A stretch of 64,000 nucleotides of DNA from an uncultured Ruminococcus sp. (GTDB lineage: Bacteria; Bacillota; Clostridia; Oscillospirales; CAG-272): contig CACZAZ010000003.1 of NCBI GenBank assembly GCA_902779285.1, positions 10,014-74,013 on the forward strand. Reading direction: 5' to 3'. This document shows positions 3,266 through 63,355 of this stretch, one piece after another (position 1 is the stretch's first letter; each line of letters opens with the position of its first letter). Both the position numbers and the translations under genes were made by a program. The notes under the pieces were generated by a model that was not told the DNA's origin, did not search any database, and was given only the letters and a program-made list of their open reading frames with translations.

Positions 3266-3341
3266 TGGTGCACCTCCAGGGACTCGAACCCTGGACCCAC
3301 TGATTAAGAGTCAGTTGCTCTACCAACTGAGCTAGAGGTGC
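3266..3341 (-). tRNA. tRNA-Lys (anticodon CTT)
   Basis: The reverse complement reads gcacctctagctcagttggtagagcaactgactCTTaatcagtgggtccagggttcgagtccctggaggtgcacca. It forms a cloverleaf with a TTCGAGT T-loop and an encoded CCA. Confidence 0.9.
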
Positions 3342-9909: not shown

Positions 9910-9985
9910 TGCGGCATCGCCAAGCGGTAAGGCAACGGACTCTGACTCCGTCATCACCTAGGTTCGAATCCTAGTGCCGCAGCCA
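9910..9985 (+). tRNA. tRNA-Gln (anticodon CTG)
   Basis: tgcggcatcgccaagcggtaaggcaacggactCTGactccgt...ctaggttcgaatcctagtgccgcagcca has the same layout as bacterial tRNA-Gln, with an encoded CCA. Confidence 0.85.
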
Positions 9986-9986
9986 T

Positions 9987-10025
9987 GAAAGAGCCCTCTT
10001 TTGTCTACCAAAAGAGGGCTCTTTC
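9987..10025 (+). terminator. long perfect hairpin after tRNA-Gln, a likely terminator
   Basis: A 16-bp stem, gaaagagccctctttt/aaaagagggctctttc, with loop gtctacc. The T-run lies inside the stem rather than after it. Confidence 0.45.
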
Positions 10026-10027
10026 AA

Positions 10028-10124
10028 TGATATCCGTTCCTTGTCGGAACGGGTGATATCCCTTCGGGATGATATCCGCTGACGCGGATGATATACGCCT
10101 GCGGCGTATGAAGGAACGGATATT
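10028..10124 (+). repeat. array of four short stem-loops, each starting with GATAT(C/A)C, in the leader of the cyclase gene
   Basis: Stems: ccgttcc/ggaacgg (10034-10052), atccc/gggat (10058-10070), atccgc/gcggat (10074-10089) and atacgcc/ggcgtat (10093-10109). A distal segment, ggaacggatat (10113-10123), is complementary to 10030-10040. Confidence 0.6.
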
Positions 10125-11214: not shown

Positions 11215-13947
11215 ATGAAAAAACGCATCCTGCTCTTTACGCTCGCTTTTTGTATCGTCCTTTGCCTTTCGCTGTTCGTTTCGTGCGGCAAGAACAAGAC
11301 CGACGCGACGACGGCGGAAGAGACCGCCGCGCACGAACACGTCTGGGACGCCGGCGTAACGACGGCGATCGGACCCTGTGAAAGCAAGACCGTCTACACC
11401 TGCTCCGAGTGCGGAGAGACCAAGACCGAGACGGTCGAATCGCACGTCTGGGGCGAGACCGCGCGCCTGATCGCGCCGCCGACGGCGGACGGGGACGGCG
11501 AATGCGAGCGGCTCTGCTCGGTCTGCAAAAAAACGGGAGGGATCGTACCTATGACAAACGAGGAATACAACGCGAAGGTCGAAGAACTGAAGGCGAAGAT
11601 CGACGCGTTCAGCACCTCCGCGTTCGGCGGGGCGAGGGTCACGAAGACCCTTTCCGAGTTCAACGCGGCGGCACAGGCGCTGGCAAGCGCGGACGGGAAG
11701 ACCTTTACGCCCTACGCCGCGCCGAAAAAGAACCCGATCGCGGGGCATCCGCGCGTGCTCTTCAACGAGAGCGATCTCGACGCGATCCGCGGCGTTCTGA
11801 AAGAGGAACGGAGCCGCGACGCCGCCGCGATCTTCTTCGATTCGGTCACGACGATCCCGACGGGAGAACTCGGGGAGGCGACCCTGCACGAAAAGGGGAC
11901 CTATAAATACGTAACGGACAGCGTCTACAACTACGACGACGAGATGCTGAAACAGATCCAGGCGCTCGCCCTCGACTATCGGCTGACCGGGAACAAGATC
12001 TCGGGCTACGGCGCGATCCTCGCGATCGAGAACTACATTCTCACGCTCGATATCGCGCAACTGACGAGCGATCCCGAACGTCAGTACGGCGCCGTGATGT
12101 ACACTGCGGCGTGCGTCTACGACTGGTGCTACGACCTTACGAGCAACCTCGACCGGCTTCGCATCGTTTCGGGCGTCGAGCACAAGATCGTCAACGGCAA
12201 GCATATGGAAATGGGCTTCCCGCCGATCAAGCAGTATTCAATCGCTGGGCACGGCTGCGAATATCAGCTGATGCGCGACTATCTCGCCTTCGCCCTGGCG
12301 ATCTACGACGAATATCCCGGCTGGTGGGAATTCATCGCCGGACGGTTCTATCAGGAATACGTCGAGGCGCGCAACGAGTTCTACGCGGGCGGGATGGTGT
12401 CGCAGGGCGTTTCGCTCTACGTCCGCGTCCGCTTCGCGTCGGATCTGTATTCCGCGTGGCTGCTCAAAGCCGGCGTCGGAGAGATGCCGTATAACGCCGA
12501 CGATATGAAACGGGTCATGCGCTCGATCTACTCGTACGAATTGCCGAACGGAAACGGCTTCGCGATGGGCGACAGCCACGAGACGAAGATCGACGGCGAC
12601 TTTATCAACTACGGACTTCCCGCGATGATGGCGGCGTACCTCTTCAACGACGAAACCATGCGCGCCCAGCTCGAGAGCCGCGAGGGCTGCTACACCAAGT
12701 TCTACGACGAGGACCAGGACTGCTTCGAGTACACCGGAGTCGCGGAGTATCTGATCTGCAGCTCGAACGACGTGAAGGCGGCGGACGACGTCCACAAGGA
12801 TATGGATCTGATCCTCTACAACGGCGGCTGGCTCGGACAGATCATCGCCCGCAACAACTGGGGCGAAGATCAGGCGACCGTCTTGATGAAGATCGGCGTC
12901 AAGACTGCGGGCAACCACGATCATCAGGATCAGGGACAGTTCCAGATCTTCTATAAGGGAATGCTCGCGGGCGATACCGGCGTTTACGACAGCTACAATT
13001 CCACGCACCGGAACAGCTATCACCGGCAGACCATCGCGCACAACTGCGTCCTGGTCCGCACGCCCGGCGCCACCGGCACGTCCGACAGCGGCGGGCAGAA
13101 AAAGATCGGCGGCGACGAGATGAGTCTCAGCGGCTGGAACACCGAGTCGAGGACCAAGACCGGCGAGGTGATCGGAGTCAAGTACGCCTACGCCGACGCG
13201 GCGAAGACCAAGCCGCTCTACGCCTATATCGCGGGCGATATCTCGGCGTCCTACGAATCCACGAGGGCGTCCAATGTCGCGCGCCGGATGCTCGCGGTCT
13301 ACGACACGCAGAACGACGACGTTCCGCTCTGTTTCTTCGTCTTCGATAACGTGACCGCCGCGACCGCCGCGTACGAAAAGGTCTTCCTGCTCCATACCCG
13401 GACCGAGCCGACGATCGCGGGCAAGACCGTGACCGAGGTGAACGGAGAGGGCAAACTGGTCCTGCAGAACGTCTTCGGCGGCGATACGGTCACGAAGATC
13501 GGCGGCGAGGGCAACAACTACAATATCAACGGAACGCAGGTCGAAGCGAAAACCGACGCCACCAGCCGCGAGGACGGCTACTGGGGCAGGGTCGAGATCG
13601 TCACGAGCGGGGAAAAGACCCAGCAGATGCTGAACGTGATGTACGTCTGCGACGCCGACAAGGACCCGGCTCTGACCGCCGCCGCGATCGAGACCGACGA
13701 CGTCAAGGGAGCCGTGATCGGCAAGGTCGCCGCGGTCTTCGTCACGTCCGACGCGCGTAGGGAGACTACGTTCAAGTTCACGGCGCCGGGCGAGGGCGAC
13801 CTGACCTATTACGTCTCGGGCGTGAAAGCCGGAACGTGGACGCTCTCCGTGAACGGACAGTACAGAAATCTGAAAGTGACCGAGGAGAGCGGATTCCTCA
13901 CCTTTACGGCGCCCGCGGGCGTCGAGATCTCGCTGATCCCGTCGTGA
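11215..13947 (+). CDS. heparinase II/III-like (alginate-lyase superfamily) lipoprotein with N-terminal Cys-rich repeats
   Basis: Signal peptide and lipobox (LSLFVSC). NHDHQDQGQFQIFYKG...HRQTIAHNCVL resembles the heparinase II/III family. The start is at MKKRILLF, with GGAGGA upstream. Confidence 0.7.
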   Translation: MKKRILLFTLAFCIVLCLSLFVSCGKNKTDATTAEETAAHEHVWDAGVTTAIGPCESKTVYTCSECGETKTETVESHVWGETARLIAPPTADGDGECERLCSVCKKTGGIVPMTNEEYNAKVEELKAKIDAFSTSAFGGARVTKTLSEFNAAAQALASADGKTFTPYAAPKKNPIAGHPRVLFNESDLDAIRGVLKEERSRDAAAIFFDSVTTIPTGELGEATLHEKGTYKYVTDSVYNYDDEMLKQIQALALDYRLTGNKISGYGAILAIENYILTLDIAQLTSDPERQYGAVMYTAACVYDWCYDLTSNLDRLRIVSGVEHKIVNGKHMEMGFPPIKQYSIAGHGCEYQLMRDYLAFALAIYDEYPGWWEFIAGRFYQEYVEARNEFYAGGMVSQGVSLYVRVRFASDLYSAWLLKAGVGEMPYNADDMKRVMRSIYSYELPNGNGFAMGDSHETKIDGDFINYGLPAMMAAYLFNDETMRAQLESREGCYTKFYDEDQDCFEYTGVAEYLICSSNDVKAADDVHKDMDLILYNGGWLGQIIARNNWGEDQATVLMKIGVKTAGNHDHQDQGQFQIFYKGMLAGDTGVYDSYNSTHRNSYHRQTIAHNCVLVRTPGATGTSDSGGQKKIGGDEMSLSGWNTESRTKTGEVIGVKYAYADAAKTKPLYAYIAGDISASYESTRASNVARRMLAVYDTQNDDVPLCFFVFDNVTAATAAYEKVFLLHTRTEPTIAGKTVTEVNGEGKLVLQNVFGGDTVTKIGGEGNNYNINGTQVEAKTDATSREDGYWGRVEIVTSGEKTQQMLNVMYVCDADKDPALTAAAIETDDVKGAVIGKVAAVFVTSDARRETTFKFTAPGEGDLTYYVSGVKAGTWTLSVNGQYRNLKVTEESGFLTFTAPAGVEISLIPS

Positions 13948-14011: not shown

Positions 14012-16756
14012 ATGAAAAAAGTACTTTATCTTACCGCGATCGTTCTGTGTCTCGTCCTCTCGCTTGCGGCGCTGACCGCCTGCTTCGGAGGGGGAGACGA
14101 TACCGAAAAGACCGAGGCGCCCGGGACCACCGAAGCCGAGACCCACGAACACGTCTGGGACGAGGGGCGCGTGATCCGAGAGGGGAGCTGCAACGCCGAG
14201 ACCCAAGAGGAGACAAAAGGCGAGATCCTCTATACCTGCACCGTCTGCGGTGAAACCAAGACCGAGGAGACCGACGGGCATACCTGGAACGACGGACGGG
14301 TGGTCGACGCCGCGGACTGCACCCATACCGGGATGCGGATGTATACCTGTACCGTTTGCAATGCCAAGAAGACCGCGGCGATCCCCACCAACGGGATGCA
14401 CAAATTCACCGACGGCTATCTCGTCGTCGCGCCGACCGAGAATTCCGCGGGTCAGCGCGCCGGGATCTGCTCGATCTGCGGCGCCGTCAGCCGCGTGGAG
14501 GACGAAATGACCTACGAGGAGTACAGTTCCAAACTCAACGCCGCGACGACGGCGATCGGCGCTTTCAAGACCGAATCCTTCGGCGGCAGGGAGCATACCA
14601 AGATGTCGACCGACAAGTATTCCGCCCCCGGAGCGTATCCGACGGCGGGCGAGCATCCGCGGATCTTTATGAACAAGACCACGATCAGACAGGTGCGCGC
14701 TGCGCTGCAGGATCCCGCGAACGCCGCCACCGTGACGTCGCTTATCGAAGTGGCGAACGCTTACGCGTCCGGGAAGGTCACCGAATACAGCGCCGGGGTG
14801 CTCAACTGTGCGCGGGCGAAGGCGTTTCTGTACCAGATGACCGGCGTCAAACTCTACGGCTACGACGCGATCCGGCTGATGAAGGAGTTTCTGACCACCT
14901 GTACCTCGGTCGGGAGCAGCGGCGATCCCTGCCGCAAATACGGCGAGATCATGTTCGCTACGGCGGTGGTTTACGACTGGTGCTACGATCTGCTCACCGC
15001 GACCGACAAGACGCAGTTCATCTCGGGCGTCGAGCATAAGGTCGTAAACGACTCCCACATGGAGGTCGGCTTCCCGCCGTCTGGACAATGGGCGATCACG
15101 GGTCACGGCGCCGAGCGCCAGATCCTGCGCGACTATCTCTCCTTCGCGCTCGCCATCTACGACGAGGAACCGACGTGGTATCAGTTCATCGGCGGACGGA
15201 TCTATCAGGAATACGTTCCGGTCCGCGATCTCTATTACGAGGCGGGCTATTATCCGCAGGGCGTTTCGGTCTACCTGTCTCTCCGTTTCGCCGCCGACCT
15301 CTGGAGCGCGTGGCTGCTCAAGTCCGCGACCGGGGATATGCCCTACGACGCCGACGGGATGAAACAGGTGATGCACACGGTCTACTCGTACGTCGTCGAC
15401 GGCGCCAATCGCTTCTTTGAGGAGGGCGACGACGAGGCGAGGGACGGCGTCGAGAATATGAGGCAGTTCGCGACCGCCGCCCTGATCTCCGCGTATCTTT
15501 TCGACGATCCGACGGCGATGAGTTGGGCGGATTTCGCAAGCTACTCCTATATCGAAAAACCGTATATTATGATCCTGAAATCGAGCGGCGTCGAGGGCAA
15601 GGCGGCTACGCGCTACGACGGGCTGGACCTGATCCTCTACAACGGCGGCTGGCTCGGGCAGGTGATCGCGCACAGCAACTGGACCAACACCGGCGCGACG
15701 GTTTTGATGAAGATCGGGAACCACAACAACGCAAACCACGATCACGCCGACTCGGGCGCGTTCCAGATCTACTACAAGGGACTGCTCGCGGGCGACTCGG
15801 GCTTCTACGACAAGTACGACTCGAATCACCATCTGAATTATCACAAGTCGACCATCGCGCACAACTCGATCGTTCTGCAGAAGGGATCGAACCTGATCCA
15901 GCAGAGACGGCCGCCCGAAATGAAATCGCTGGAGCCCGCAAGCTACGACCGGGCGTGGACCAACAGCCAGTATCAGTTCGGGACCACCACGGGGCACGCG
16001 GGCGCGTATCTCGACGAGGCGAAGACGAAGCCGAAGTACGCCTACATCGCGGGCGATATCGCGAAGGCGTACGCCTCGACCGTCACCCGGCTCGACAGGC
16101 GGATGCTCGCGGTCTACGATACCGGGAACGCCTCCGTGCCGATGTACTTCTTCGTCTACGACAATATCACCGCGAGCGACAGTTCGTATCAGAAGGTCTT
16201 CCTGCTGCACACGATCAACGAACCGACGATCTCGGGCAAGACCGTCACCGTCGTCAACGGGGACGGAAAACTGGTGCTCCAGAACGTCGTCGGCAATACC
16301 ACGGTCTCGAAGGTCGGAGGCGCGGGGCACAACTACGACGTCGGCGGCTCGCAGATCAACACGTTGAAAGGCGAGGACGACGGCTACTGGGGACGCGCGG
16401 AGATCAAGACCGTCGCCGGGAACGAAAACGACGTGATGCTGAACGTGATGTACGTCTGCGACAAGAACAAGACGCCGGAGGGACAGACCGCGACCGCGTT
16501 CTCGAACACCCTAATCACCGGCTCCGTGATCGGCAAGGTCGCCGCCGTGTTCGTCAACGCGGCGGAAAGACGCTCGAACGCGCTCACCTTCACCGCCCCG
16601 GGATCGGGCGACCTGACCTACTACGTCTCGGGCGTCAAGGCGGGGAATTGGACTGTCTCGTCGAGCGGCGGGACCCAAACCGTCGCCGCGACGGAGGACG
16701 GCGGACTGCTCGTCTTTACCGCCCCGGCGGGAACGGTATCGCTCACTCCGCAGTAA
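14012..16756 (+). CDS. paralogous heparinase II/III-like lipoprotein
   Basis: Lipobox LTAC. NHDHADSGAFQIYYKG...HKSTIAHNSIVL. It is collinear with the upstream paralog along its whole length. Confidence 0.7.
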   Translation: MKKVLYLTAIVLCLVLSLAALTACFGGGDDTEKTEAPGTTEAETHEHVWDEGRVIREGSCNAETQEETKGEILYTCTVCGETKTEETDGHTWNDGRVVDAADCTHTGMRMYTCTVCNAKKTAAIPTNGMHKFTDGYLVVAPTENSAGQRAGICSICGAVSRVEDEMTYEEYSSKLNAATTAIGAFKTESFGGREHTKMSTDKYSAPGAYPTAGEHPRIFMNKTTIRQVRAALQDPANAATVTSLIEVANAYASGKVTEYSAGVLNCARAKAFLYQMTGVKLYGYDAIRLMKEFLTTCTSVGSSGDPCRKYGEIMFATAVVYDWCYDLLTATDKTQFISGVEHKVVNDSHMEVGFPPSGQWAITGHGAERQILRDYLSFALAIYDEEPTWYQFIGGRIYQEYVPVRDLYYEAGYYPQGVSVYLSLRFAADLWSAWLLKSATGDMPYDADGMKQVMHTVYSYVVDGANRFFEEGDDEARDGVENMRQFATAALISAYLFDDPTAMSWADFASYSYIEKPYIMILKSSGVEGKAATRYDGLDLILYNGGWLGQVIAHSNWTNTGATVLMKIGNHNNANHDHADSGAFQIYYKGLLAGDSGFYDKYDSNHHLNYHKSTIAHNSIVLQKGSNLIQQRRPPEMKSLEPASYDRAWTNSQYQFGTTTGHAGAYLDEAKTKPKYAYIAGDIAKAYASTVTRLDRRMLAVYDTGNASVPMYFFVYDNITASDSSYQKVFLLHTINEPTISGKTVTVVNGDGKLVLQNVVGNTTVSKVGGAGHNYDVGGSQINTLKGEDDGYWGRAEIKTVAGNENDVMLNVMYVCDKNKTPEGQTATAFSNTLITGSVIGKVAAVFVNAAERRSNALTFTAPGSGDLTYYVSGVKAGNWTVSSSGGTQTVAATEDGGLLVFTAPAGTVSLTPQ

Positions 16757-39604: not shown

Positions 39605-41017
39605 ATGAAACGCGACGTAAACGGCGTCCGGCTGACAGCCGTATTGCTTTTGATCCTGACTCTGATCTTCGCCTTTTCGGGTTGTACTGCGTTCGCTTTG
39701 CGCCCCGCCGAAACGGGGGAAACCGACGCGACGGCGCCCGAAACCACGGGGAGCGGGGAAAAACAGCCGTCCGAGCTGGTCTCGCTGCTTCTTGCAAACG
39801 AAACGATCCCCGATTTCAACCAAACGGTCGTCGAGAATATCCACTACTACTATTCGCACTATTTCATCGGCGACCTCGGGACCGACGCCGAACTTGCGGC
39901 GGCGATCGCGGAGTTCTACGCCGAATACCGCGATCTGATCGACGAGAGCGACCCGGGTGAAGTGACCGACCTCCTCTGCGAGAGTTATCTTGCCGCCGCG
40001 GGGGATAAATACGCCTACTATATGAATCCCGAGGCGTACGCCGAATACACGTCGGATATGACCGGCAACTACGTCGGGATCGGGGTCCAGGTCACCAACG
40101 ACGCGGTGGCGCGGATCATCACGGTCACCGCCGTCTTTCCCGACACGCCCGCGTACGAGGCGGGGGTGCTGGCGGGCGACGTCATCGAGGCGGTGGGGGA
40201 CACTCCGGCGTCGACCATCTCGTTTGCAGAACTCGTCAACCGCATCCGCGGTGAGGAGAATACCGAAGTAACGGTCACTTTCGCGCGGGGCGGCGAGACC
40301 TACACCCGCACCATGACCCGCCGCACGGTCGTGCAGGTCACGGCGTCGGCGTCGGTCCTGCCCGGATCCCCGAAGATCGGCTTGATCCAGATCACCGAGT
40401 TCGACGAGACCACGGCGCCGCAGTTCAAAGCCGCGCTCGACGGTCTCTTCGACGAGGGGATCGACGGACTGATCTTCGATCTAAGGAACAACCCCGGCGG
40501 GCTTCTCTCCTCGATCCTGACGGTGCTCGATTATCTGGTGCCGAACGGAACGCCGCTCGCCAACTACGAATACTACGACGGCTCGGTCGAGTACGACGTG
40601 GCGAACTGTGCAAGTTACGACAAGTCCGCCGTCGACCGTAAACTGCCTTCGGATCTTCCGATCGCCGTTCTCTGCAACGAGCATACCGCGTCTGCGGGCG
40701 AGCTCTTCACCTGCGCGATGCAGGATTACGCGAGAGAGGGGCTGCTCGACGTGAAGATCGTCGGAACCGTGACCTACGGAAAGGGAACGATGCAGACGCA
40801 GGTCCGGCTGGGCTCGGGCTGCGCGACCACCATTTCCTTCGCGCACTACAATCCGCCCTACTCCCCGAACTACGAGGGGAAGGGGATCACGCCGGATCTT
40901 GTCGTCGAACTCTCCGAGGAGGCGCAGAACAAGTCCGTCTGGGCGCTCACCGACGAGGAGGACGTGCAGATGTCGGCGGCGATCGATTCGGTCACGGAAC
41001 GGGTGGTGAGTGAATGA
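39605..41017 (+). CDS. S41 family C-terminal processing peptidase
   Basis: PDZ region (AGVLAGDVIEAV), then LIFDLRNNPGGLL and SASAGELF...GKGT. Confidence 0.8.
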   Translation: MKRDVNGVRLTAVLLLILTLIFAFSGCTAFALRPAETGETDATAPETTGSGEKQPSELVSLLLANETIPDFNQTVVENIHYYYSHYFIGDLGTDAELAAAIAEFYAEYRDLIDESDPGEVTDLLCESYLAAAGDKYAYYMNPEAYAEYTSDMTGNYVGIGVQVTNDAVARIITVTAVFPDTPAYEAGVLAGDVIEAVGDTPASTISFAELVNRIRGEENTEVTVTFARGGETYTRTMTRRTVVQVTASASVLPGSPKIGLIQITEFDETTAPQFKAALDGLFDEGIDGLIFDLRNNPGGLLSSILTVLDYLVPNGTPLANYEYYDGSVEYDVANCASYDKSAVDRKLPSDLPIAVLCNEHTASAGELFTCAMQDYAREGLLDVKIVGTVTYGKGTMQTQVRLGSGCATTISFAHYNPPYSPNYEGKGITPDLVVELSEEAQNKSVWALTDEEDVQMSAAIDSVTERVVSE

Positions 41018-42381
41018 ACCGGCAGGACGAATTCGCGTCCCCCGAACGAAAAAAGGGGACCCCGTCCCGTCCGCTGCTCGTCACGCTGCTCGCCTGTCTT
41101 CTGACCGGGATCGTCGTGTTCCTCACGACCTTCTTCGCGCTCACGGGGTACTACGGATCCGAGATCGAGGATTACCGGAACAACTACGTGCGGCGCTCGG
41201 ATAAGTACGACCCGGGACTGCTCGAAGCGGCGCTCGGACTGCTCGACGCCAACTCGATCTTCGATCTCCCCGACCGGGGCGATCTGACCGAGACCATGGT
41301 AGAGGCGGCGATCTCCGCGATGGGCGACCGCTACGGAACTTTCTTTACCGACGCCGAATACGCCTCGTATTCGTCGGATCTGTCGGGCAATTTCGTCGGG
41401 ATCGGCGTCACGCTCCAGAAAAACGCCGACGGCAACGCCGAGGTCGTTCTGGTCCACGCGGGCTCGCCCGCGCAAGACGCGGGACTGCTCGCCGGAGACG
41501 TTCTGACCGAGATCGACGGCAAATCCTTCGCGGACGGCTACGACGAGGCGTTCAACGCGATCGTCGGAGAGGCGGGGACCGTCGTCAACGTCTCGTTCTT
41601 CCGCGCGGGCGAGCCGATGAACGCCTCCGTCACGCGGGCGGAGGTGACCAAGCAGACCGTGATCTCCCGGATCGAAAATTACGGCGGGAGTAAGATCGGC
41701 TACGTTCATATCACCGGCTTTGACGGACACACCTACGAACAACTCGAGAGGGCGGTGTCGGAACTGGAGGGCGAGGGGATCGACGCGCTGACCTTCGACC
41801 TTCGCTCGAACGGCGGCGGGCTTCTGTCGTCGGTCGGGACGGTGCTTGCGTATCTGCTCCCGGACGGCGTGATCGCCTACGTGGATTACCGCTCCGAGTC
41901 GCTTTCGGACTATACCATTTCCGCGGAGGACGGATACCTGAAAAACGGCGGATCCTCCACCCTCTACCGCGAGGGAGGTCACGAACTGTCCCCGGATCTT
42001 CCGGTCGCGGTCCTGGTGAACGGCGGGACCGCTTCGGCGGCGGAACTGTTCACCGCGGCGCTCCGCGACTACGCCGACCCCGCGTTCGCCTCCGCAGCCG
42101 GGGTGACGCCGCTCGACGTGACGGTCGTGGGAACGACGACCTACGGAAAGGGGACCGTGCAGACCACCTATACGGTCGGCGCGGACAGTTATCTCAAACT
42201 GACCGTCGCGCGGTACAGCCCCCCCACCAACGTCAACTACGACGGGGTCGGGATCACCCCCGGGCTTGTCGTGGAATTGCCGGAGGAACAGGCGGGGGTC
42301 AGCATCTATCTTCGCACGCGGGATAACGACGCGCAGCTTGCGGCGGCGCTCGCGTATCTCGACCAAAAAGTCAACCCTTAA
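41014..42381 (+). CDS. second S41 family peptidase
   Basis: LTFDLRSNGGGLL, TASAAELF and YGKGTVQ. The ATG overlaps the previous stop (ATGA). Confidence 0.8.
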   Translation: MNRQDEFASPERKKGTPSRPLLVTLLACLLTGIVVFLTTFFALTGYYGSEIEDYRNNYVRRSDKYDPGLLEAALGLLDANSIFDLPDRGDLTETMVEAAISAMGDRYGTFFTDAEYASYSSDLSGNFVGIGVTLQKNADGNAEVVLVHAGSPAQDAGLLAGDVLTEIDGKSFADGYDEAFNAIVGEAGTVVNVSFFRAGEPMNASVTRAEVTKQTVISRIENYGGSKIGYVHITGFDGHTYEQLERAVSELEGEGIDALTFDLRSNGGGLLSSVGTVLAYLLPDGVIAYVDYRSESLSDYTISAEDGYLKNGGSSTLYREGGHELSPDLPVAVLVNGGTASAAELFTAALRDYADPAFASAAGVTPLDVTVVGTTTYGKGTVQTTYTVGADSYLKLTVARYSPPTNVNYDGVGITPGLVVELPEEQAGVSIYLRTRDNDAQLAAALAYLDQKVNP

Positions 42382-42957: not shown

Positions 42958-44827
42958 ATGGCAGACGTACAGAACAACAATCCGGGCAGCGAACTTGCGG
43001 TCCGCCGCGAGAAACTGGCGGCGCTGGTCGCGGAGGGGAAGAACCCCTTTACCATCACCAAATACGAGGTCACGGCGCACGCCTCCGAGATCGTCTAGAA
43101 TGATGAGCCGCCGGATCATGGGCAAGGCGGCGTTCGTCCATCTGATGGACGGATCGGGAAAGATCCAGCTTTACGTGAAGCGCGACGACGTCGGAGAGGA
43201 CGCCTACGCCGCGTTTAAAAAGTGGGACGTCGGGGACGTCGTCGGCGTACACGGCTTCGTTTTCAAAACGCAGACCGGGGAGATCTCGGTGCATTGCGAC
43301 GGTATCGTTCTGCTCGCCAAGTCGCTTCTCCCCCTGCCCGAGAAGTTCCACGGGCTGACCAACACCGACCTCCGCTATCGGCAGCGGTACGTCGACCTGA
43401 TCATGAACCCCGAGGTCAAGGATACCTTCGTCCGCCGGAGTAAGATCCTTGCCGAGATCCGGGCGTACCTGGACGGAAAGGGATTTCTCGAGGTCGATAC
43501 CCCGATCCTGACCCCGTTCGAGATCGGCGCGTCGGCGCGTCCTTTCTTCACGCACCACAACACGCTGAATATGGATATGGTCCTCCGCATCGAGACCGAA
43601 CTCTATCTGAAACGGCTGATCGTCGGCGGATTCGAGCGGGTCTACGAGGTGGGACGGATCTTCCGCAACGAGGGGATGGATCCCAAGCACAACCCCGAAT
43701 TCACCTCGATCGAACTCTATCAGGCGTACACCGACTATAAGGGGATGATGGACCTCGTCGAGGAACTCTACACCCTGCTCGCCAAGAAGATCTGCGGCTC
43801 GACCGTGATCCCCTATCAGGGACAGATGATCGATATGGGGCATTGGGAACGGCTCACGATGGTCGAGGCGGTGAAAAAGTATTCCGGCGCCGACTACAAC
43901 GCCTGGAAGACCGACGAGGACGCCCGCAACGAGGCGGCGAAACTCCACGTTCCGGTCCCCGCAGACGCCACGAAGGGAACCGTGCTCGCGGAACTCTTCG
44001 ACGCGTTCGTTGAGGAGAAACTGATCCAGCCGACCTTCATCTACGACTATCCCGTGGAGAACAGCCCGCTCGCGAAGCGGAAACCCGAGGATCCCGCGTT
44101 CACCGAGCGTTTCGAGTATTTCATCAACGCGACCGAGTTCGGCAACGCCTTCAGCGAACTGAACGACCCGATCGATCAGAAGGGACGGTTCGTCGCGCAG
44201 GTCGAGGCGAGACGCCGCGAGGACCCGAATACCAAAGCCAGGGTCGACGAGGACTACGTCACCGCGCTCGAATACGGTATGCCCCCGACGGGCGGGCTCG
44301 GCTTCGGGATCGACCGGCTCGTGATGCTCCTGACCGACAGCGCGTCGATCCGCGACGTCTTGCTCTTCCCGACGATGAAGCCGCTGGATCAGGACAAGCC
44401 CGCCGACGCTCCCGCGGAAACCGCGGCAGAAACCTCCGCCCCCGAAGTGATCGATTTCTCGAAGGTGGAGATCGAGCCGCTGTTTTCCGACACGGTCGAT
44501 TTCGAGACCTTCTCGAAGTCGGATTTCCGCGCGGTCAAGGTGCTCGCGTGCGAGGCGGTGCCGAAGTCGAAGAAACTCTTGAAGTTCACCCTGAACGACG
44601 GTACCGGGACCGACCGCGTCATCCTCTCGGGGATCCACGCGTTCTACGAGCCGGAGCAGCTCGTCGGCAAGACCCTGCTCGCCATCGTCAACCTCCCGCC
44701 CCGCGCCATGATGGGCATCGAGTCGAACGGGATGCTGATCTCCGCCGTCCACAACGAGGAGGGCGAGGAAAAACTCCATCTCCTGATGCTCGACCCGCAC
44801 ATCCCCGCCGGCGCGAAGATGTATTGA
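42958..44827 (+). pseudogene. lysS: lysyl-tRNA synthetase (class II) interrupted near codon 47, with a C-terminal Trbp111/EMAPII-like tRNA-binding domain; either a frameshifted gene or an assembly error
   Basis: Frame 1, 42958-43098, encodes MADVQNNNPGSELAVRREKLAALVAEGKNPFTITKYEVTAHASEIV and then TAG. The rest of LysRS (RMMSRRIMGKAAFVHL... through class II motifs 1-3) continues in the next frame, with ATGs at 43100 and 43103. Confidence 0.6.
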
Positions 44828-45097
44828 CGACGACACGCACAGACGGCACAGGACGGAAAACAAAAAGGGACTATCCGAAATTCGAGGTGCTTTCCGCTTT
44901 GTTCCGTTATTCCGCATAGCAAATTGCGATTAAGGACGAAAACCACCCGCTTTCGCGAGTGGTTTTCTCCTTTTTTATTTGTATTTTTGTTTTCCTCTCG
45001 CCGTTTGCTTGCTCTCGGCGTATGAAGATACGCCTTCGGGTCGCAAACGACGACCCTGCACTCGCCTGTGCGCGCCTGACAGCAATAGCTGGCGCAG
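44828..45097 (+). repeat. copy C of a ~270-290 nt gene-3'-flank repeat, in the sense orientation of lysS
   Basis: It starts at the first base after the lysS stop and is collinear with the reverse complements of 45241-45520 and 60558-60830. The order is leader, terminator, U-rich spacer, second hairpin (44998-45053), then a tail ending gctggcgcag. Confidence 0.75.
44939..44980 (+). terminator. lysS terminator, part of repeat copy C
   Basis: aaaaccac ccgctttcgcga gtggtttt, followed by ctccttttttattt. Confidence 0.7.
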
Positions 45098-45240
45098 TTA
45101 ATAAGAAAAAAGAAACCAAGTGCGCTGACGCAAGTACGAAAGCGCGACTTTTCCGTTCGCCTTGCTTTGTGGTAAAATACCGCACCGTTCCTTCGGAGCG
45201 ATGGTCGGCAACGTCTTATCAACCCATCCGCGCGTCGTCC

Positions 45241-45520
45241 CCTTGACCCTACCCGCGCCAGCTCAAGTTATCAGACGCGCGGAGGTGCGTGCAGAATCCC
45301 CGTTCTCGACCCGAAACTGTACAAGCGTACTGTGAGCGGTCGAGAACGGGGAGAGGAAAACGAATTTGAAAAAAAGAAGAAAACCTCCCGCGGCTCCGCG
45401 GGAGGTTTTCAACCTTAATTTGCGTTTATCAATGCAAGGAGTTTTCACAGAGCAGAAAGCTTTGACGGATTCATTATAGATTCCATTCGTTTTCCGGTCT
45501 GTGCGCGCATACGCGTGTCG
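45241..45520 (-). repeat. copy A of the 3'-flank repeat, in the sense orientation of the Gfo/Idh/MocA gene
   Basis: It starts at the first base after the stop codon at 45521-45523. It contains terminator 45384-45405 and the 14-bp hairpin ccccgttctcgacc/ggtcgagaacgggg (45298-45351). Confidence 0.75.
45365..45405 (-). terminator. terminator of the Gfo/Idh/MocA gene, part of repeat copy A
   Basis: cctcccgcgg/ccgcgggagg hairpin, followed on the minus strand by ttttcttcttttttt. Confidence 0.7.
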
Positions 45521-46711
45521 TCAGATCTTCGGGATCTTGATCTCGATCTCTTTCCCGATCGCCGCCGACTTCGCGATGCCGTCGAGGATCGCCTGGTTGT
45601 AGAGGATCTCGCTCGACGGAACGGGAGCGGCGCCGCCGTTCTTGCTCGCGTCGAGGAAGGTGCGGATCTTCTGGTCGAAGAGCGAAGGCATACCGGCTTT
45701 CGAGCCGATCAGCGGGATCTCGGTGCAGACCTGTTCGCCCGCGACCTCGTGATAGATCTTCAGGGGCTTGTCGAACGAGCCGTTCCAGCACTCGGTCGAG
45801 GGGATACGGAGCGAGCCCTTGGTACCCATGATGATCGTGTCGCCCGAGGTGTCGAGGTTCATCGCCCACGCGATACGGAAGTCGAGGATGATCCCGCCCT
45901 CAAGACGAATGAACGCGGCGGCGAAATCGTCGACCGAGAAGACCTTCGCGTATTCGGGATGACCCTTCTTGACGTAACCGGAGTAGTTCGGATCCTTGCC
46001 GAAGAAATCGGACTTGTAACCCGAGACGGTCAGGGGTTTCGGATAGCCGAGCGCGTTCAGCACGCAGTCGAGCGAGTAGCATCCGATATCACCGAGCGCG
46101 CCGAGGCCCGCGGTCTTGTCTTCAATGAAGGTGGTCCCGTAGGGGAAGGGAATACCGCGCCGCCGGCCGCCGCCGGTCTGGACGTAGTAGATCTTGCCGA
46201 GTTCGCCCGACTGCACGATCTTCTTGATCATCTGCATATTGGCGTCGAAACGCGGCTGGAAACCGATCGAGAGGACCTTGCCGCTCTTCTTCTCGGCGCG
46301 CATGATCTCGACCGCCTCTTCGGTGGTCACGCACATCGGCTTCTCAAGCAGGACGTTGACGCCCGCGTTCAGCGAGTCGATCGCGCAGATCGCGTGGGTG
46401 CGGTTGTAGGTGCAGACGCTGACGCAGTCGAGCTTCAGCGACTTGTCCGCGAGCATCGCCTTGTGGTCGGCGTAGTCGGTCTTGACGCCCTCGATCCCTC
46501 TGTCCTTGAAAAACGCTTCGGCTTTTCCGGGGATCAGGTCGCAGCCCGCGACGATCTCGACGTCGGGCTGTCTCAGGTAGCTCGACAGGTGGGTCTCGGC
46601 GATCCAGCCGCACCCGATGATACCGACGCGAACTTTTTTCGACGCGTCAACCTCCGCCTCGTCTTTGCTGACGTCCATAAAAGCGTTCAGGGAATCGTCC
46701 TTCTTTGCCAT
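45521..46711 (-). CDS. Gfo/Idh/MocA family oxidoreductase
   Basis: KVRVGIIGCGWIAETHL Rossmann motif and an EKPM block. The start is at MAKKDD, with GGAGGA upstream. Confidence 0.8.
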   Translation of the reverse strand: MAKKDDSLNAFMDVSKDEAEVDASKKVRVGIIGCGWIAETHLSSYLRQPDVEIVAGCDLIPGKAEAFFKDRGIEGVKTDYADHKAMLADKSLKLDCVSVCTYNRTHAICAIDSLNAGVNVLLEKPMCVTTEEAVEIMRAEKKSGKVLSIGFQPRFDANMQMIKKIVQSGELGKIYYVQTGGGRRRGIPFPYGTTFIEDKTAGLGALGDIGCYSLDCVLNALGYPKPLTVSGYKSDFFGKDPNYSGYVKKGHPEYAKVFSVDDFAAAFIRLEGGIILDFRIAWAMNLDTSGDTIIMGTKGSLRIPSTECWNGSFDKPLKIYHEVAGEQVCTEIPLIGSKAGMPSLFDQKIRTFLDASKNGGAAPVPSSEILYNQAILDGIAKSAAIGKEIEIKIPKI

Positions 46712-49022: not shown

Positions 49023-49053
49023 GAAAAATGCGCCCCGTCTCACGCCGGGGCGC
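49021..49053 (-). terminator. terminator upstream of P2
   Basis: The minus strand reads gcgccccg gcgtgaga cggggcgc, followed by atttttctt. Confidence 0.55.
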
Positions 49054-49128
49054 AATTCATGCCGCGCTCGCGCGGCAATTCACGACGCGGAGCGTCAATT
49101 CATGCCGACGAAGGAGGCAATTCATCAA
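49052..49128. repeat. four phased copies of (G/T)CAATTCA(T/C), an iteron- or operator-like array
   Basis: Copies start at 49052, 49075, 49095 and 49117, spaced 20-23 bp apart. The palindrome ttgccgcaagcggcaa lies next to them at 49147-49162. Confidence 0.6.
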
Positions 49129-49317: not shown

Positions 49318-49391
49318 TGGAGGCGCCACCCGGAATCGGACCGGGGATGAAGGTTTTGCAGACCTCTGCCTTACCGCTTGGCTATGGCGCC
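49318..49391 (-). tRNA. tRNA-Cys (anticodon GCA), with a non-canonical T-loop
   Basis: The reverse complement is ggcgccatagccaagcggtaaggcagaggtctGCAaaaccttcatccccggtccgattccgggtggcgcctcca. The T-loop reads TCCGATT where TTCGATT is expected. Confidence 0.8.
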
Positions 49392-49631
49392 GGATAAATG
49401 AGACAAGGAATTGCGCACGGACTGCGCGGAGAGAAAACCGGAACCGACGAGGGCTCTGAACCGGGGTTCAAGCCGGAAATGCGCACGGACGGAACAAAGA
49501 GAAAAACGGAACTGACGAGGGCTCTGAACCCTGGCGTCGGATAACGGAGCAGTCATTGTTGCTGTGCCGGGGCGACGCCTTGGATTTCTCACCGCTCCGC
49601 GGCGAGAAATCGGGGTTCAAGCCGGACGCGG

Positions 49632-49673
49632 TTCGAAAAAGAGCGGGAAGGATCACGGGATCCTTCCCGCTCT
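49632..49673 (-). terminator. hairpin/terminator after tRNA-Gly
   Basis: A 13-bp stem, agagcgggaagga/tccttcccgctct, followed on the minus strand by ttttcg. Confidence 0.5.
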
Positions 49674-49677
49674 TTTT

Positions 49678-49753
49678 TGGAGCGGATTACGGGGCTCGAA
49701 CCCGCCACCTCGACCTTGGCAAGGTCGCGCTCTACCAAATGAGCTAAATCCGC
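49678..49753 (-). tRNA. tRNA-Gly (anticodon GCC)
   Basis: The reverse complement is gcggatttagctcatttggtagagcgcgaccttGCCaaggtcgaggtggcgggttcgagccccgtaatccgctcca. Confidence 0.9.
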
Positions 49754-49771
49754 GGAGCGACCATCGGTCGC

Positions 49772-49847
<76 letters not shown>

Positions 49848-49861
49848 AAAGGGAATAAGGA

Positions 49862-49938
49862 TGGCGACCCGGATGGGGCTCGAACCCACGACCTCCGCCG
49901 TGACAGGGCGGCGCTCTAACCAACTGAGCTACCAGGCC
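49862..49938 (-). tRNA. tRNA-Asp (anticodon GTC)
   Basis: The reverse complement is ggcctggtagctcagttggttagagcgccgcctGTCacggcggaggtcgtgggttcgagccccatccgggtcgcca. Confidence 0.9.
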
Positions 49939-60202: not shown

Positions 60203-60238
60203 AGCGACCGCCGCACGGAGCACCGTGCGGCGGCGGTA

Positions 60239-60451
60239 TTATTCGTCTTCTCCAAACATCCGGTCGACGGCGTGATCGAGCGCGTCGGCGCATTTCTTGC
60301 CCGCCTTTTTCATTGCGCATTTGGCGTCGCTGCGCTTGTACCAGAGCAGCGTTCCCATAGCACCCAGCCCCATCGCCGCCGCGATCCAGAACACCACCGC
60401 CGGCGAACAGCACTCCCGCCGCTTCTTTTTCTCTTTGCAAAGCATCATCAT
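60239..60451 (-). CDS. small (70 aa) single-TM protein
   Basis: AAGGAG lies 8 nt upstream of the first of three ATGs. The TM segment is AVVFWIAAAMGLGAMGTLLW. Confidence 0.5.
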   Translation of the reverse strand: MMMLCKEKKKRRECCSPAVVFWIAAAMGLGAMGTLLWYKRSDAKCAMKKAGKKCADALDHAVDRMFGEDE

Positions 60452-60557
60452 TCCGAGAACTCCTTTTTGTCCTATTGTGCCACGCCGCTTCCTTTCTTAT
60501 TCCTTGGTTTCTTTTTTCAAGCAAACCGCGCCGGCAAACGCCAAGCCATTGGAAACA

Positions 60558-60830
60558 TTTTCAACCTAACCGCGCCAGCAGATGCCGCCTGACAGGAGGA
60601 GGCAGATGCAGAATTCGCGCTTGCGACCCGACGCTGTACAATCGTACTGCAAGTGGTCGCAAACGCGGATAGAAAAACAAAAAACAAATCAAAGAAGAAA
60701 ACCGCCCCTCGGGGCGGTTTTCAACCTCTATTGCGTTTTACTATGCAGGTTTTTCAAACAGGGTGGAATGCTTTAACGGACTTATATATTCCATCCTTTT
60801 TGTTTTTCGGTCTGCGCTGAAATCCGCCTG
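60558..60830 (-). repeat. copy B of the 3'-flank repeat, in the sense orientation of glmS
   Basis: It starts at the first base after the glmS stop. It contains terminator 60702-60717 and the hairpin tcgcgcttgcgacc/ggtcgcaaacgcgg (60615-60668). The part distal to the terminator is bracketed by ttttcaacct at 60558 and 60718. Confidence 0.75.
60685..60717 (-). terminator. glmS terminator, part of repeat copy B
   Basis: ccgccc ctcg gggcgg, followed on the minus strand by ttttcttctttgatttgtttttt. Confidence 0.7.
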
Positions 60831-62666
60831 TCACTCCACCGTGACGGATTTGGCGAGGTTACGGGGCTGGTCCACGTCGCATCCGCGGGCAAGCGACACC
60901 TGGTACGCGAGCAGCTGCATCCCGGTCGCCAAAGCGATGGGCGCGACGGTCTCGGGGCAGTCGGGGCAGACAAAGGCGACCTTCGCCATCTCGCGGAGTT
61001 CCGTGACGCCCTCTTTCCCTGCGGCGAAGACGAACAGTTTCGCTCCGCGGGCGACGACCTCTTTCATATTGCCGACCATCTTCTCGCGGATGCCGGCTTC
61101 GCTCGAAATGGCGACGACCGGAGTCCCCGGCTCGATCAGCGAGATGGTGCCGTGCTTCAGTTCTCCCGCGGCGTACGCCTCGCTGTGGATGTAGGAGATC
61201 TCTTTCAGTTTCAAGGACGCTTCGGCTGCGAGCGTGGCGTCGAAGAGTCGACCGATAAAGAACATATCGTCCTTTTCGGCGATGTCTGCGGCGATGGATT
61301 TGAGTTCCTTTTCGCGGGCGATGATCTTCTTGATCTCGGCGGGGAGGGCGATCGTCAGATCGGAAACGTACTTCCGGGCGACCTCCTCCGTAACGGTCCC
61401 GCGGATCATCCCCGTCCAGACCCCGAACAGGGTCATCAGGGCGGTCTGCACGGTGTACGCCTTGGTGCTGGCGACGGCGATCTCGGGTCCCGCGTAGGTG
61501 TAAAGCACCGCGTCGGATTCACGCGCGACGGTCGAGCCGACGGTGTTGACGATCCCGAGCGTGAAAGCGCCCGCCGCTTTTGCAAGCCGGAGCGCGGCGA
61601 TGGTGTCGGCGGTCTCGCCCGATTGCGAGATCAGGATCACGAGTTCGTCGGGCTCGATCACCGGATTGCGGTAACGGAACTCCGACGCGATCTCGGCGGA
61701 CGCGCGGACGCCCGCGACCCGTTCGAGGACGGCGGCTCCGGTAAGTCCGGCGTGGTAGGCGGTCCCGCAGGCGACGATACGGACCGAACGCACCGCTTTG
61801 ATCCGTTCGGGTTTCAGTCCCTCCGGGGCAAAATCGGGGATCCCGTCCGCGATGCGGGGAAGCAGGGTCTTGCGAACGGCGTCGGGCTCCTCGTAGATCT
61901 CCTTGTGCATAAAGTGGGCGTGACCGCCTCTCATCGCGGCGGCAAGATCCCAGAGAGCGGTCTGCGGCTCGCGCTTGACCTCGTTCCCCTCGGAATCGTA
62001 GACCGTCACCGTATCGCGGGTGATCCTTGCGACGTCGCCGTTTTCGAGCGCGAGATAGCGGCGGGTATAGGCGAGGATCGCCGTCACGTCGGAGGCGATC
62101 AGGTTCTCGTTTTCCCCGAGTCCCACGATGAGCGGGCTGTCCTGCCGCGCCGCCCAGATCTCGCCGGGCTTGTCTGCGAACAGGATCCCGAACGCGTACG
62201 AGCCGCGGATCTTCTTGAGCGCTTTGAGGATGCCCGCAAGACGGTCTCCCTCGCGGGTGCAGGAGTCGATCAGGAGTGCCGCCGCCTCGGTGTCGGTATC
62301 CGACTTGAAGGCGTAGCCCTGATTCTCGAGTTCGAGTTTCAGTTCGCGGCAGTTCTCGATGATCCCGTTGTGGACCAGCATCAGCCGCTCGTTCCCGTGG
62401 GGGTGCGAGTTGACGTCGGTCGGCGCGCCGTGCGTCGCCCAGCGGGTATGTCCGATCCCGCAGCGGGTGTTGACGTTCTCCTCGCTCGCCAGTTTGTTCT
62501 CAAGACAAGCGATCTTGCCCGCCGATTTGACCGAGCGGAGAGCGCCGCCCTTTTCGAAGAACGCGATCCCGGAGGAGTCGTATCCCCGGTATTCAAGCGC
62601 GTGAAGACCGCCGAGAATGACCGCGTCCGCTTTTTTGGGACCGGTATAGCCGATAATGCCGCACAT
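60831..62666 (-). CDS. glmS: glutamine--fructose-6-phosphate aminotransferase
   Basis: The N-terminus MCGIIGYTG, two SIS domains, and the C-terminus NLAKSVTVE. Confidence 0.9.
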   Translation of the reverse strand: MCGIIGYTGPKKADAVILGGLHALEYRGYDSSGIAFFEKGGALRSVKSAGKIACLENKLASEENVNTRCGIGHTRWATHGAPTDVNSHPHGNERLMLVHNGIIENCRELKLELENQGYAFKSDTDTEAAALLIDSCTREGDRLAGILKALKKIRGSYAFGILFADKPGEIWAARQDSPLIVGLGENENLIASDVTAILAYTRRYLALENGDVARITRDTVTVYDSEGNEVKREPQTALWDLAAAMRGGHAHFMHKEIYEEPDAVRKTLLPRIADGIPDFAPEGLKPERIKAVRSVRIVACGTAYHAGLTGAAVLERVAGVRASAEIASEFRYRNPVIEPDELVILISQSGETADTIAALRLAKAAGAFTLGIVNTVGSTVARESDAVLYTYAGPEIAVASTKAYTVQTALMTLFGVWTGMIRGTVTEEVARKYVSDLTIALPAEIKKIIAREKELKSIAADIAEKDDMFFIGRLFDATLAAEASLKLKEISYIHSEAYAAGELKHGTISLIEPGTPVVAISSEAGIREKMVGNMKEVVARGAKLFVFAAGKEGVTELREMAKVAFVCPDCPETVAPIALATGMQLLAYQVSLARGCDVDQPRNLAKSVTVE

Positions 62667-62686
62667 AAAAAAACTCCTGTATGAAA

Positions 62687-63355
62687 TCAGATTTTGCGGG
62701 GAACGATCGAGCCGTCCCCTTTCAGAATGGACTTTTCGGGGACGGATCCGCGGACGCGGGAGAGCGGATAGATAACGGTATCGCGCCCGACGACCGATCC
62801 GGGGCAGAGTACGCTGTTGCAACCGACGTCGACCCCGTCTCCGAGGATCGCGCCGAGCTTCCGCATCCCGGTCTCGATCTTTTCGTTCCCGTCGCGCACG
62901 CCGACGTTTCCCTTGTCGCTCCGGAAATTGGAGGCGACGACGCCCGCGCCCATGTGCGAACGGAAACCGAGGATCGAGTCTCCGACGTAGTTGTAGTGGG
63001 GGACCTGCACGTTATCGAAGATCACGGCGTTTTTGACCTCGGTCGAGTTGCCGACGACGCAATTGTCTCCGATCAGCGCCGACCCGCGGATGAACGCGCA
63101 ATGCCGCACCTCGGTTCCGGCGCCGATCACGGTCGGACCCTGGATCAGGGCGGTCGGGGCGATCTTCGCCGTCTTGTGCGCAAAGACCCCGGGGGCGATC
63201 TCGTCGTATTCCTCTCTCGAAAGAGAAGCGCCGAGTTCGCGGATGAACTCTTTTAAAAGCGGCAGGATCTCCCACGGATAGCGCTTGCCGCGGAACAGGG
63301 GGGCGGCGAGCGTATGCGTCAGATCCAGCAGTTCTTCGATCTTCGGGATCGCCAT
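62687..63355 (-). CDS. left-handed beta-helix (hexapeptide-repeat) transferase, GlmU C-terminal-like
   Basis: Hexapeptide repeats (IGAGTEV, IGDNCVVG, ILGDGVDVG). It lies 20 nt upstream of glmS in the same operon. I preferred the ATG at 63355 by SD spacing. Confidence 0.65.
   Translation of the reverse strand: MAIPKIEELLDLTHTLAAPLFRGKRYPWEILPLLKEFIRELGASLSREEYDEIAPGVFAHKTAKIAPTALIQGPTVIGAGTEVRHCAFIRGSALIGDNCVVGNSTEVKNAVIFDNVQVPHYNYVGDSILGFRSHMGAGVVASNFRSDKGNVGVRDGNEKIETGMRKLGAILGDGVDVGCNSVLCPGSVVGRDTVIYPLSRVRGSVPEKSILKGDGSIVPRKI

Follow-up and report, generated by a model that had tools for sequence, protein, structure and literature searches.

Introduction

Bidirectional intrinsic terminators, in which a GC-rich hairpin lies between A and U tracts, stand between the ends of convergent genes and terminate the abutting gene. 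The repeats known as REP/BIME, REPIN, ERIC/IRU, BOX, Correia and bcr1 are multi-copy and intergenic, usually lie at the 3′ ends of genes, and have a conserved secondary structure with signs of compensatory evolution; some of them carry terminators. They are single imperfect palindromes of ~35–150 bp, found in either orientation and at variable distances from the gene. Integron attC sites vary in sequence and are conserved in structure, lie directly past or overlap the stop codon of the upstream ORF, and are folded on the strand antisense to that ORF. Their hallmarks are the R″/R′ core sites (RYYYAAC ... GTTRRRY), a length of 57–141 bp, and arrays of co-oriented cassettes.

Here, we describe a repeated element that resembles each of these systems in part, found in a 64,000-nt stretch of DNA from an uncultured Ruminococcus sp., the whole of which is called the window below. 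A sequence-only reading of the window had drawn attention to one hairpin (hairpin 2), described as an independent stem-loop lying past a terminator. This hairpin proves to be a single helix within a repeated element whose several helices make a closed fold, and literature searches found no description of such an element.

Copies and genes in the window

A degenerate search found only three copies of the element in the window, and nhmmer agrees. Copies A and B fold better on the plus strand and copy C, which is inverted, on the minus strand; C and A stand tail to tail. Each follows the stop codon of a gene, and the 3′ strand of P1 in copy B (60823–60832) overlaps the glmS stop codon by 2 nt. 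The parts are as follows, with T denoting the terminator hairpin, P1 and P2 the ends of the basal helix, and P3 a long-range helix.

42995–44827, plus strand: class II aminoacyl-tRNA synthetase gene, whose stop codon (44825–44827) abuts copy C
44828–45125, minus strand: copy C, whole, with T at ~44940–44969 and GCTGGCGC at 45088–45095
44998–45053, minus strand: hairpin 2 of copy C
45239–45273, plus strand: leader/tail of copy A, with the GCGCCAGC motif at 45255–45262
45274–45295, plus strand: 5′ strand of the copy A basal helix, made up of P1 (GACGCGCG), a G.U-rich middle and P2 (CAGA), and pairing with 45498–45519
45297–45352, plus strand: hairpin 2 of copy A, spanning positions 24–79 in the single-sequence minimum free energy (MFE) fold
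45355–45365, plus strand: 5′ strand of P3 in copy A (GGAAAACGAAU), which pairs with 45485–45495 and encloses T
45379–45410, minus strand: T of copy A, a 14-bp stem whose long U tract is confined to the minus strand, which ends the oxidoreductase gene
45411–45484, plus strand: inner hairpins of copy A, between T and the 3′ strand of P3
45485–45495, plus strand: 3′ strand of P3 in copy A (AUUCGUUUUCC), placed by covariation and MFE
45498–45519, plus strand: 3′ strand of the copy A basal helix, ending 1 nt before the complement of the stop codon
45521–46729, minus strand: GFO/IDH/MocA-family oxidoreductase gene, whose stop codon (45521–45523) abuts copy A
60591–60832, plus strand: core of copy B, from the 5′ to the 3′ strand of the basal helix, with T at 60697–60722
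60614–60669, plus strand: hairpin 2 of copy B
60831–62822, minus strand: glmS, whose stop codon (60831–60833) abuts and overlaps copy B

Further units accompany many elements, trailing them as P1-like modules (GACGACGCGCGGAT on the gene strand) and GCGCCRGC leader units. In the window these occur at 45227–45240 (plus strand), just upstream of the leader/tail of copy A, and at 60500–60556 (plus strand); elsewhere they lie downstream of the copies at loci L012, L013, L022, L026, L029 and L033. Some are 'mini' copies, which look like the full element minus everything between the two P1 strands.

A family confined to one lineage

One genome per bacterial or archaeal species was scanned with a pattern of flanking words (GTTTTYCTNTC ... 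CTGCA ... GCTGGCGC), which left hairpin 2 unconstrained and of which the GCGCCAGC word of the tail was part. This returned 44 loci, comprising 36 true copies and eight chance matches in unrelated phyla. All 36 true copies come from metagenome-assembled genomes (MAGs) that bear the label Clostridia or Ruminococcus sp., and the names of most of these give a rumen origin. A second pattern, built from the P2 and P3 strands only, gave 44 further loci in rumen metagenomes, bringing the family to 84 distinct copies with a mutual identity below 97%. The element is restricted to a single lineage of uncultured Clostridia from the rumen, and searches of viral, phage and plasmid collections gave no match to it. 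With Rfam 15, the whole window at gathering thresholds yielded only tRNAs and Gut-1, away from the element; on extending the search to an E-value of 10, the best match was PyrR (29.6 bits against a threshold of 54), an identity that was rejected because this weak match is just the terminator hairpin on which it sits.

Identity between copies averages ~71% and reaches 91% at most in a 34-copy alignment, with no near-identical copies; the copies are thus old. Tandem, partial and internally deleted copies exist. Five orthologous gene ends from different MAG species all carry the element, and between these orthologues the paired columns differ by 7–10% and the other columns by 16–33%, so that paired columns evolve 2–3 times more slowly than the rest. 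The same comparison contains nine double compensatory changes, where a back-of-envelope estimate puts the number expected by chance at ~1.5. Nested at differing positions in several copies is a palindromic mini-repeat of ~40 nt (GAACCCCCRACGC-N10-GCGYCGGGGAACCCC), which looks like a separate family of small insertions; it lies in the terminator loop at L007 and L011 and near P1 at L014, L017, L023 and L043, and is not found in the window.

The window and related loci also hold arrays of differing perfect GC-rich hairpins, spaced by a constant 7–8-mer. One array in the window (10025–10099, plus strand; word ATGATAT(C)) comes right after a tRNA and its terminator and is the Gut-1 match noted above (54.1 bits), and a second, at 49052–49125, has CAATTCA four times. 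Other arrays are at L045:4845–4945, L021:7413–7500, L041:1222–1360, L012:42–140, L068, L071, L073 and L078, and the words used at related loci include GTGATATG, ATATCGC, ACATCATT, TGAATTG, AATGATG and TATCGAA. Such arrays often lie directly past the tail of the element, and at a 60%-identical glmS locus directly past the stop codon. Six tRNA genes are present in the window (49321–49938, minus strand; 3269–3341, minus strand; 9910–9982, plus strand), four of them clustered beside the CAATTCA array. Two pairs of coding segments of ~75% identity, 12241–13856 with 15095–16668 (~2.8 kb apart) and 40453–40548 with 41772–41867 (~1.3 kb apart), are paralogous, suggesting tandem gene duplicates.

Hairpin 2 and its compensatory changes

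Hairpin 2 of copy A has a 15-bp lower stem followed by a 4 × 4 internal loop (CGAA/GAGC), and is topped by an upper stem (CUGUAC/GUACUG) with an AAGC loop. On re-reading the sequence, the stem that had been reported at 45298–45351 (ccccgttctcgacc / ggtcgagaacgggg) is indeed paired at 14 of 14 positions, and its counterpart in copy B (60615–60668; tcgcgcttgcgacc / ggtcgcaaacgcgg) differs from it by three double changes that preserve pairing (C:G to G:C, C:G to U:A, and U:A to G:C), together with one U:G wobble and one C:A mismatch, all as originally read.

The proposal that these arm changes are compensatory holds in an alignment of 39 copies, where 11 of the 22 pairs have changed on both sides. 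Across that alignment, 90.9% of hairpin 2 cells pair, as against 52% or less in slid-register controls, and there are 99 double-changed cells, compared with 34 ± 4 in shuffled alignments, none of which reached 99 in 500 trials. Pairing in hairpin 2 is thus far beyond chance. Nor is the hairpin missing from most copies, since it is kept in all 36 true copies of the genome scan.

More of the original description changes at the apex. A conserved palindromic apex had been reported, and copies A and B do share CTGTACAA(G/T)CGTACTG; across the family the sequence differs, and GTAC/TGTACA is a trait of one subfamily. The apex is of the GTAC/GTAC type in 12 of the 39 copies and of the GTAT/ATAC type in the other 27, and the pair closing the loop covaries (U:A in 27, C:G in 12), while the loops vary. 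Copy C had been thought to have a different apex, which arose from comparing opposite strands; once oriented, it matches A and B in its lower stem, internal loop, 7-bp upper stem and tetraloop. A palindrome suited to protein binding is therefore better described as a covarying stem whose sequence switches between subfamilies.

That termination alone does not account for the conservation of hairpin 2 is borne out, as the hairpin lacks a U tract and covaries in 39 to 84 copies. It is not terminator-like: the sequence past it reads AUUCUGCA on the gene strand, or GAGAGGAAAAC if the plus strand is taken, and a terminator scan flags only the neighbouring hairpins (45379–45410, 60697–60722 and 44947–62). 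Its reported position downstream of the terminator is correct on the minus (gene) strand only; on the plus strand, hairpin 2 lies 5′ of T.

A closed fold of long-range helices

Long-range pairs were revealed by a full-length alignment of 34 copies analysed with RNAalifold. The paired core measures ~245–260 nt, and the element ~290 nt with its tail. The fold is closed by a basal helix of ~22 bp, formed by P1, a G.U-rich middle and P2 (CAGA paired with UCUG), which leads into a tight three-way junction, with linkers of only 1–2 nt, that carries hairpin 2. The third arm is P3, an 11-bp long-range helix in which GGAAAACGAA, close to the gene, is base-paired to UUCGUUUUCC directly ahead of hairpin 2, enclosing two small hairpins and T. 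Rather than standing free, hairpin 2 is locked into this junction with the long-range helix and a basal helix that spans the terminator.

Both long-range helices covary. Two pairs of P3 alternate between GC and AU (19 and 15 copies, and 21 and 12 copies, respectively). In P1, the first 10 nt past the stop codon pair with a segment ~240 nt away, six of the ten pairs show double changes, and one copy has a wholly different sequence that is still complementary. Over the six helices (59 pairs), 92.6% of cells are paired, 28 pairs show double changes, and the double-changed cells number 213 as against 80 ± 7 in shuffles; all copies are related, and these cell counts therefore overstate the number of independent events; the shuffle counts are not probabilities. 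Gene conversion between copies could also imitate compensatory change. The single-sequence MFE folds of copies A and B give the same architecture without any alignment, with z-scores of −11.9 and −9.3, respectively.

Some parts of the fold are less well defined. Alignment of the J region and of the inner hairpins is imperfect, making fixed-column pairing of the inner hairpin H-b unreliable. A further hairpin 3 (CGCC/GGCG) competes with P1 and is a possible alternative pairing; its 3′ strand was fixed by the search pattern, and its covariation is therefore not scorable. Overall, the element has the covarying multi-helix fold, better than that of shuffled sequence, by which structured non-coding RNAs in general are recognised, and on sequence grounds the folded molecule may be RNA or single-stranded DNA.

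Position at the gene end

Of 71 evaluable copies, 61 are preceded by a long same-strand ORF ending 15–23 nt before the CAGA anchor, and the stop codon lies from ~3 nt either side of the first P1 nucleotide to 5 nt before it. This abutment had been overlooked in the sequence-only reading. The remaining copies either come second in a tandem array or have a small nested repeat in front of them. The abutting genes are of ordinary kinds: besides the three in the window, RNase J, BipA, glutamine synthetase, YebC, PfkB, a carboxylase subunit and an ABC permease are among them. Their stop codons (36 TGA, 24 TAA and one TAG) match genome-wide usage, and an element-specific depletion of TAG was rejected, as TAG accounts for 2% of stops genome-wide. 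In this lineage, TAG ends six of 299 called genes and none of the 35 in the window, with TGA at 59% and TAA at 39%. Such rarity is unusual for a Firmicute of 60% GC, and hints at a lost or reassigned decoding of UAG.

Each copy carries the terminator of its abutting gene and stands where a transcription unit ends. T has a strong U tract on the gene strand only (6.5 U per 10 nt, versus 3.3 on the other strand), and its loops include UUCG and UCCG on the gene strand. Genes around the copies were called with a GC3 rule that had been calibrated on the window; by these calls, 41 of 63 copies have a convergent downstream neighbour and the other 22 (~35%) a co-directional one, and in the co-directional cases a canonical promoter often follows the element. 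A distant glmS orthologue (58% identity) has only a plain bidirectional terminator, 5 nt past its stop codon.

After copy B on the minus strand comes a 70-aa ORF (60239–60451) with one predicted hydrophobic stretch, a good Shine-Dalgarno (SD) sequence and its own terminator (60207–60234). No obvious promoter is seen between glmS and this ORF, and a 69-aa counterpart occupies the same place in a 94%-identical glmS contig.

The folded strand

Most tests of strand favour the antisense of the abutting gene (the plus strand in copies A and B). When the same 66 pairs are scored, 91.6% are paired on the antisense alignment and 87.1% on the sense alignment, and for the basal helix the values are 83.8% and 73.5%. 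One basal-helix pair is U:G in 34 of 34 antisense sequences and is hence an invariant C.A on the sense strand. Over the 59 pairs in 84 copies, the gene strand has 219 A.C oppositions (G.U on the other strand) against 73 G.U. The basal duplex is predicted at −30.1 kcal/mol on the antisense strand and −22.7 kcal/mol on the sense strand, the antisense being better in 79 of 82 copies, and the plus strand is also the more stable for copy A (−126.6 versus −107.4 kcal/mol) and copy B (−103.7 versus −98.0 kcal/mol). In addition, unpaired bases on the antisense strand are A-rich, with a purine-rich internal loop in hairpin 2, whereas the unpaired regions of the gene strand are pyrimidine-rich.

Not all signs agree. 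The gene strand also folds (z = −9.5 for A and −8.4 for B), and in 11 of 34 copies the gene strand has a U:G at one mid-stem position of hairpin 2, where the antisense strand has A.C. Hairpin 2 by itself does not tell the strands apart, so the call becomes clear only when the basal helix is included. The result is a paradox, in that the element is positioned by the gene strand and folds best on the other. In a promoter scan around A, B and C, no two-hexamer sigma-70 site was found for the antisense strand; an extended −10-like word (GGTAACAT) is present in only about a third of tails, and no U-rich stretch follows the basal helix on that strand.

Explanations weighed

Comparison with known classes of mobile DNA bears on one of the alternatives. 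Miniature inverted-repeat transposable elements (MITEs) carry inverted repeats at their termini; here, P1 is a covarying 10-bp inverted repeat, with a conserved tail of ~45 nt lying outside it. For a target-site duplication, the 5′ flank offers TGA/TAA and the 3′ flank has no copy-by-copy match; a MITE with a TGA/TAA duplication was rejected, as the 3′ 'UGA' is conserved whatever the stop codon. Nor is there a sign of recent bursts or insertion polymorphism, with no near-identical copies and all five orthologous gene ends occupied. REP/REPIN mobilised by RAYT are palindromic units of 20–40 nt or inverted doublets, flanking a RAYT gene, and a unit of ~290 nt that is no simple doublet does not correspond to them. 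Integron attC was rejected on the 5′ end (GACGNCGCGG) and the absence of core sites and cassette context; GTTAGGT occurs in some tails, where GTT is not conserved (GGGTAGG, AGGCAGG and others). An IS200/IS605-derived PATE, which has a conserved target of 4–5 nt directly 5′ of its left end and alike subterminal hairpins at either end, is disfavoured by left flanks that share the stop codon only, and by the lack of a second, hairpin-2-like hairpin at the other end. Among RNA classes, a riboswitch or 5′ leader, which precedes the gene it regulates in the same orientation, does not suit an element that comes after the gene when read on the gene strand and, on the other strand, has antisense coding sequence next to it.

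The element could nevertheless be, or have been, a non-autonomous mobile DNA element whose fold belongs to a single-stranded DNA intermediate, much like the folded bottom strand of attC sites or the hairpins at the ends of IS200/IS605. A recombinase or transposase would recognise the hairpin and long-range helices, and the terminator would be carried along as cargo, rendering insertions at gene ends harmless. Copies are many and dispersed, following unrelated genes, and the family must once have spread; tandem, partial and internally deleted 'mini' copies, a P1 that acts like a 10-bp inverted repeat, and the tolerance of DNA hairpins for G.T wobbles all suit mobility, as does an attC-like geometry in which the fold is antisense to the ORF whose stop codon it abuts. 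We consider this unlikely, though worth keeping in view, as there is no target-site duplication, the left flanks share the stop codon only, core sites of attC are lacking, the genes beside the copies are core genes and vary in orientation, and identity between copies peaks at 91% (mean 71%). Retention at orthologous gene ends with slower-evolving paired columns is unexpected of decaying dead copies, phage, plasmid and viral collections gave no matches, and an unsystematic look at flanks noticed no transposase gene beside copies. A stand-alone antisense non-coding RNA gene, with its own promoter, acting in trans through protein binding or as a sponge and only incidentally at gene ends, is improbable. 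The fold, with z-scores typical of structured RNAs, the wobble asymmetry and the A-rich unpaired bases of the antisense strand would suit it, and an extended −10-like TGGTAACAT lies ~10–25 nt upstream of GCGCCAGC in ~20 of 58 terminal-type tails; yet this promoter-like word is absent or degenerate in most copies, A and C included, no terminator follows the fold on the antisense strand, an RNA acting in trans has no need for upwards of 80 diverged copies, each of them selected, and exact abutment with the stop codon goes unexplained.

That abutment is readily accommodated by a sense-strand 3′-UTR structure, in which the distal half would pair back onto the 3′ UTR after read-through of T, and a terminating ribosome would melt P1, coupling translation termination to mRNA 3′-end stability or read-through. 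Orientation is fixed to the gene, P1 starts within a few nt of the stop codon, and the promoter would come from the gene. Folding is very good on the gene strand as well (z = −9.5 and −8.4), the U:G pair of hairpin 2 in 11 of 34 copies and the UUCG and UCCG loops of T are on this strand, and copy B is followed by a co-directional small ORF without an obvious promoter. Against this, most strand tests point the other way, the basal helix of the gene strand contains an invariant C.A, unpaired regions are pyrimidine-rich, and the full fold would require read-through of a strong canonical terminator, leaving this explanation about as doubtful as the trans-acting RNA. Far less probable is the original interpretation of hairpin 2 as an independent hairpin past the terminator with a conserved palindromic apex (TGTACA/GTAC) that binds a protein; copies A and B have the apex in common and the hairpin is conserved without a U tract, but the apex varies with covariation in 39 copies and the hairpin is tied to covarying long-range helices. 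Least credible of all is a small protein encoded by a plus-strand ORF running from a conserved RUGCAG through the hairpin (MQNPRSRPE...), which could be a type I toxin with its ribosome-binding site masked by the basal helix. An AUG or GUG is present there in all 83 copies examined, some with GGAGG upstream, and long-range 5′–3′ closure over a start codon recalls hok-/aapA-type mRNAs. The ORF, however, ranges from 6 to 91 aa (below 20 aa in 16 of 83), only 20 of 83 have an SD-like word before it, the third codon position varies least (0.46 versus 0.61 and 0.60 bits), the peptide is basic rather than hydrophobic, and no other conserved ORF exists; a small ORF or type I toxin was rejected on its unconserved length, missing third-position signal and few SDs.

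A possible role at the ends of transcription units

The reading that we favour, tentatively and at rather less than an even chance, is that the element is an RNA-level gene-end module, folding on the antisense strand, that insulates its gene against transcription converging on it or antisense to it. T would act as the terminator of this gene on the gene strand. RNA that comes in from downstream on the other strand, whether by read-through from a convergent neighbour or from the weak extended −10-like motif of the tail, would read through the weak side of T and then zip into the closed structure, with its last base pair at the gene boundary. Insulation could follow from pausing or termination, from creation of a processing site, or from masking of the antisense segment. 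Hairpin 2 would be a structural junction arm in this module, and neither a terminator nor a palindromic operator. Several observations sit poorly with such a module, namely that no conserved sigma-A promoter was found for the antisense strand, that ~35% of copies have a co-directional downstream neighbour, that exact stop-codon abutment is most naturally a feature of the gene strand, and that nothing U-rich past the antisense basal helix is available to stop a polymerase.

Put more broadly, and held with more reserve, the family may represent an undescribed gene-end RNA device with a core of ~250 nt, folded antisense and selected at more than 80 loci of one Clostridia lineage, that either neutralises or terminates converging transcription or reads the state of the 3′ end. 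Were the fold that of a functional RNA, compact bacterial genomes would have in it a new, unusually elaborate way to end transcription units and to guard their genes against converging or antisense transcription, and it would join the few large structured RNA families that are both multi-copy and linked in cis to ordinary genes. Should it instead be a mobile element, targeting of stop codons in a fixed orientation, with neither duplication nor a shared flank, would call for some new mode of insertion. In both cases, the hairpin first noticed is the visible tip of a larger object, the 84 diverged copies offer enough covariation for 3D modelling, and stop-codon abutment gives a direct experimental handle.

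Comparison with known systems

Like a bidirectional intrinsic terminator, the element places a GC-rich hairpin at the end of the abutting gene, and 65% of its copies have a convergent neighbour. Here, in contrast, T is one arm of a covarying fold of ~250 nt, its U tract is strong on one side only, and the whole forms a repeated family set exactly at stop codons. With REP/BIME-type repeats it shares a multi-copy, intergenic, gene-end distribution and compensatory evolution of structure, but where those are single palindromes, the element has multiple helices, some of them long-range, a fixed orientation, a position abutting the stop codon, and old copies that persist at orthologous sites. The folded strand antisense to the ORF and the contact with its stop codon are reminiscent of attC, from which the element differs in lacking RYYYAAC/GTTRRRY cores and co-oriented cassette arrays, in abutting core genes, in being about twice the length of the longest attC, and in containing a terminator.

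Among large or multi-copy structured RNAs, whose functions are unknown or came to light only recently, HEARO (omega RNA), ROOL, GOLLD, OLE and raiA are likewise supported by covariation, several hundred nt long and found in Firmicutes or in gut or rumen organisms, and HEARO is also multi-copy. The element, unlike these, has no Rfam match or associated protein gene, and its stop-codon position and embedded terminator have no counterpart there. In hok/aapA-type mRNAs, as in the element, an end-to-end basal helix closes the molecule and covers a start-like RUG, and a bidirectional terminator is shared with the neighbouring transcript; the element differs from them in carrying neither a conserved toxin ORF nor a coding signal.
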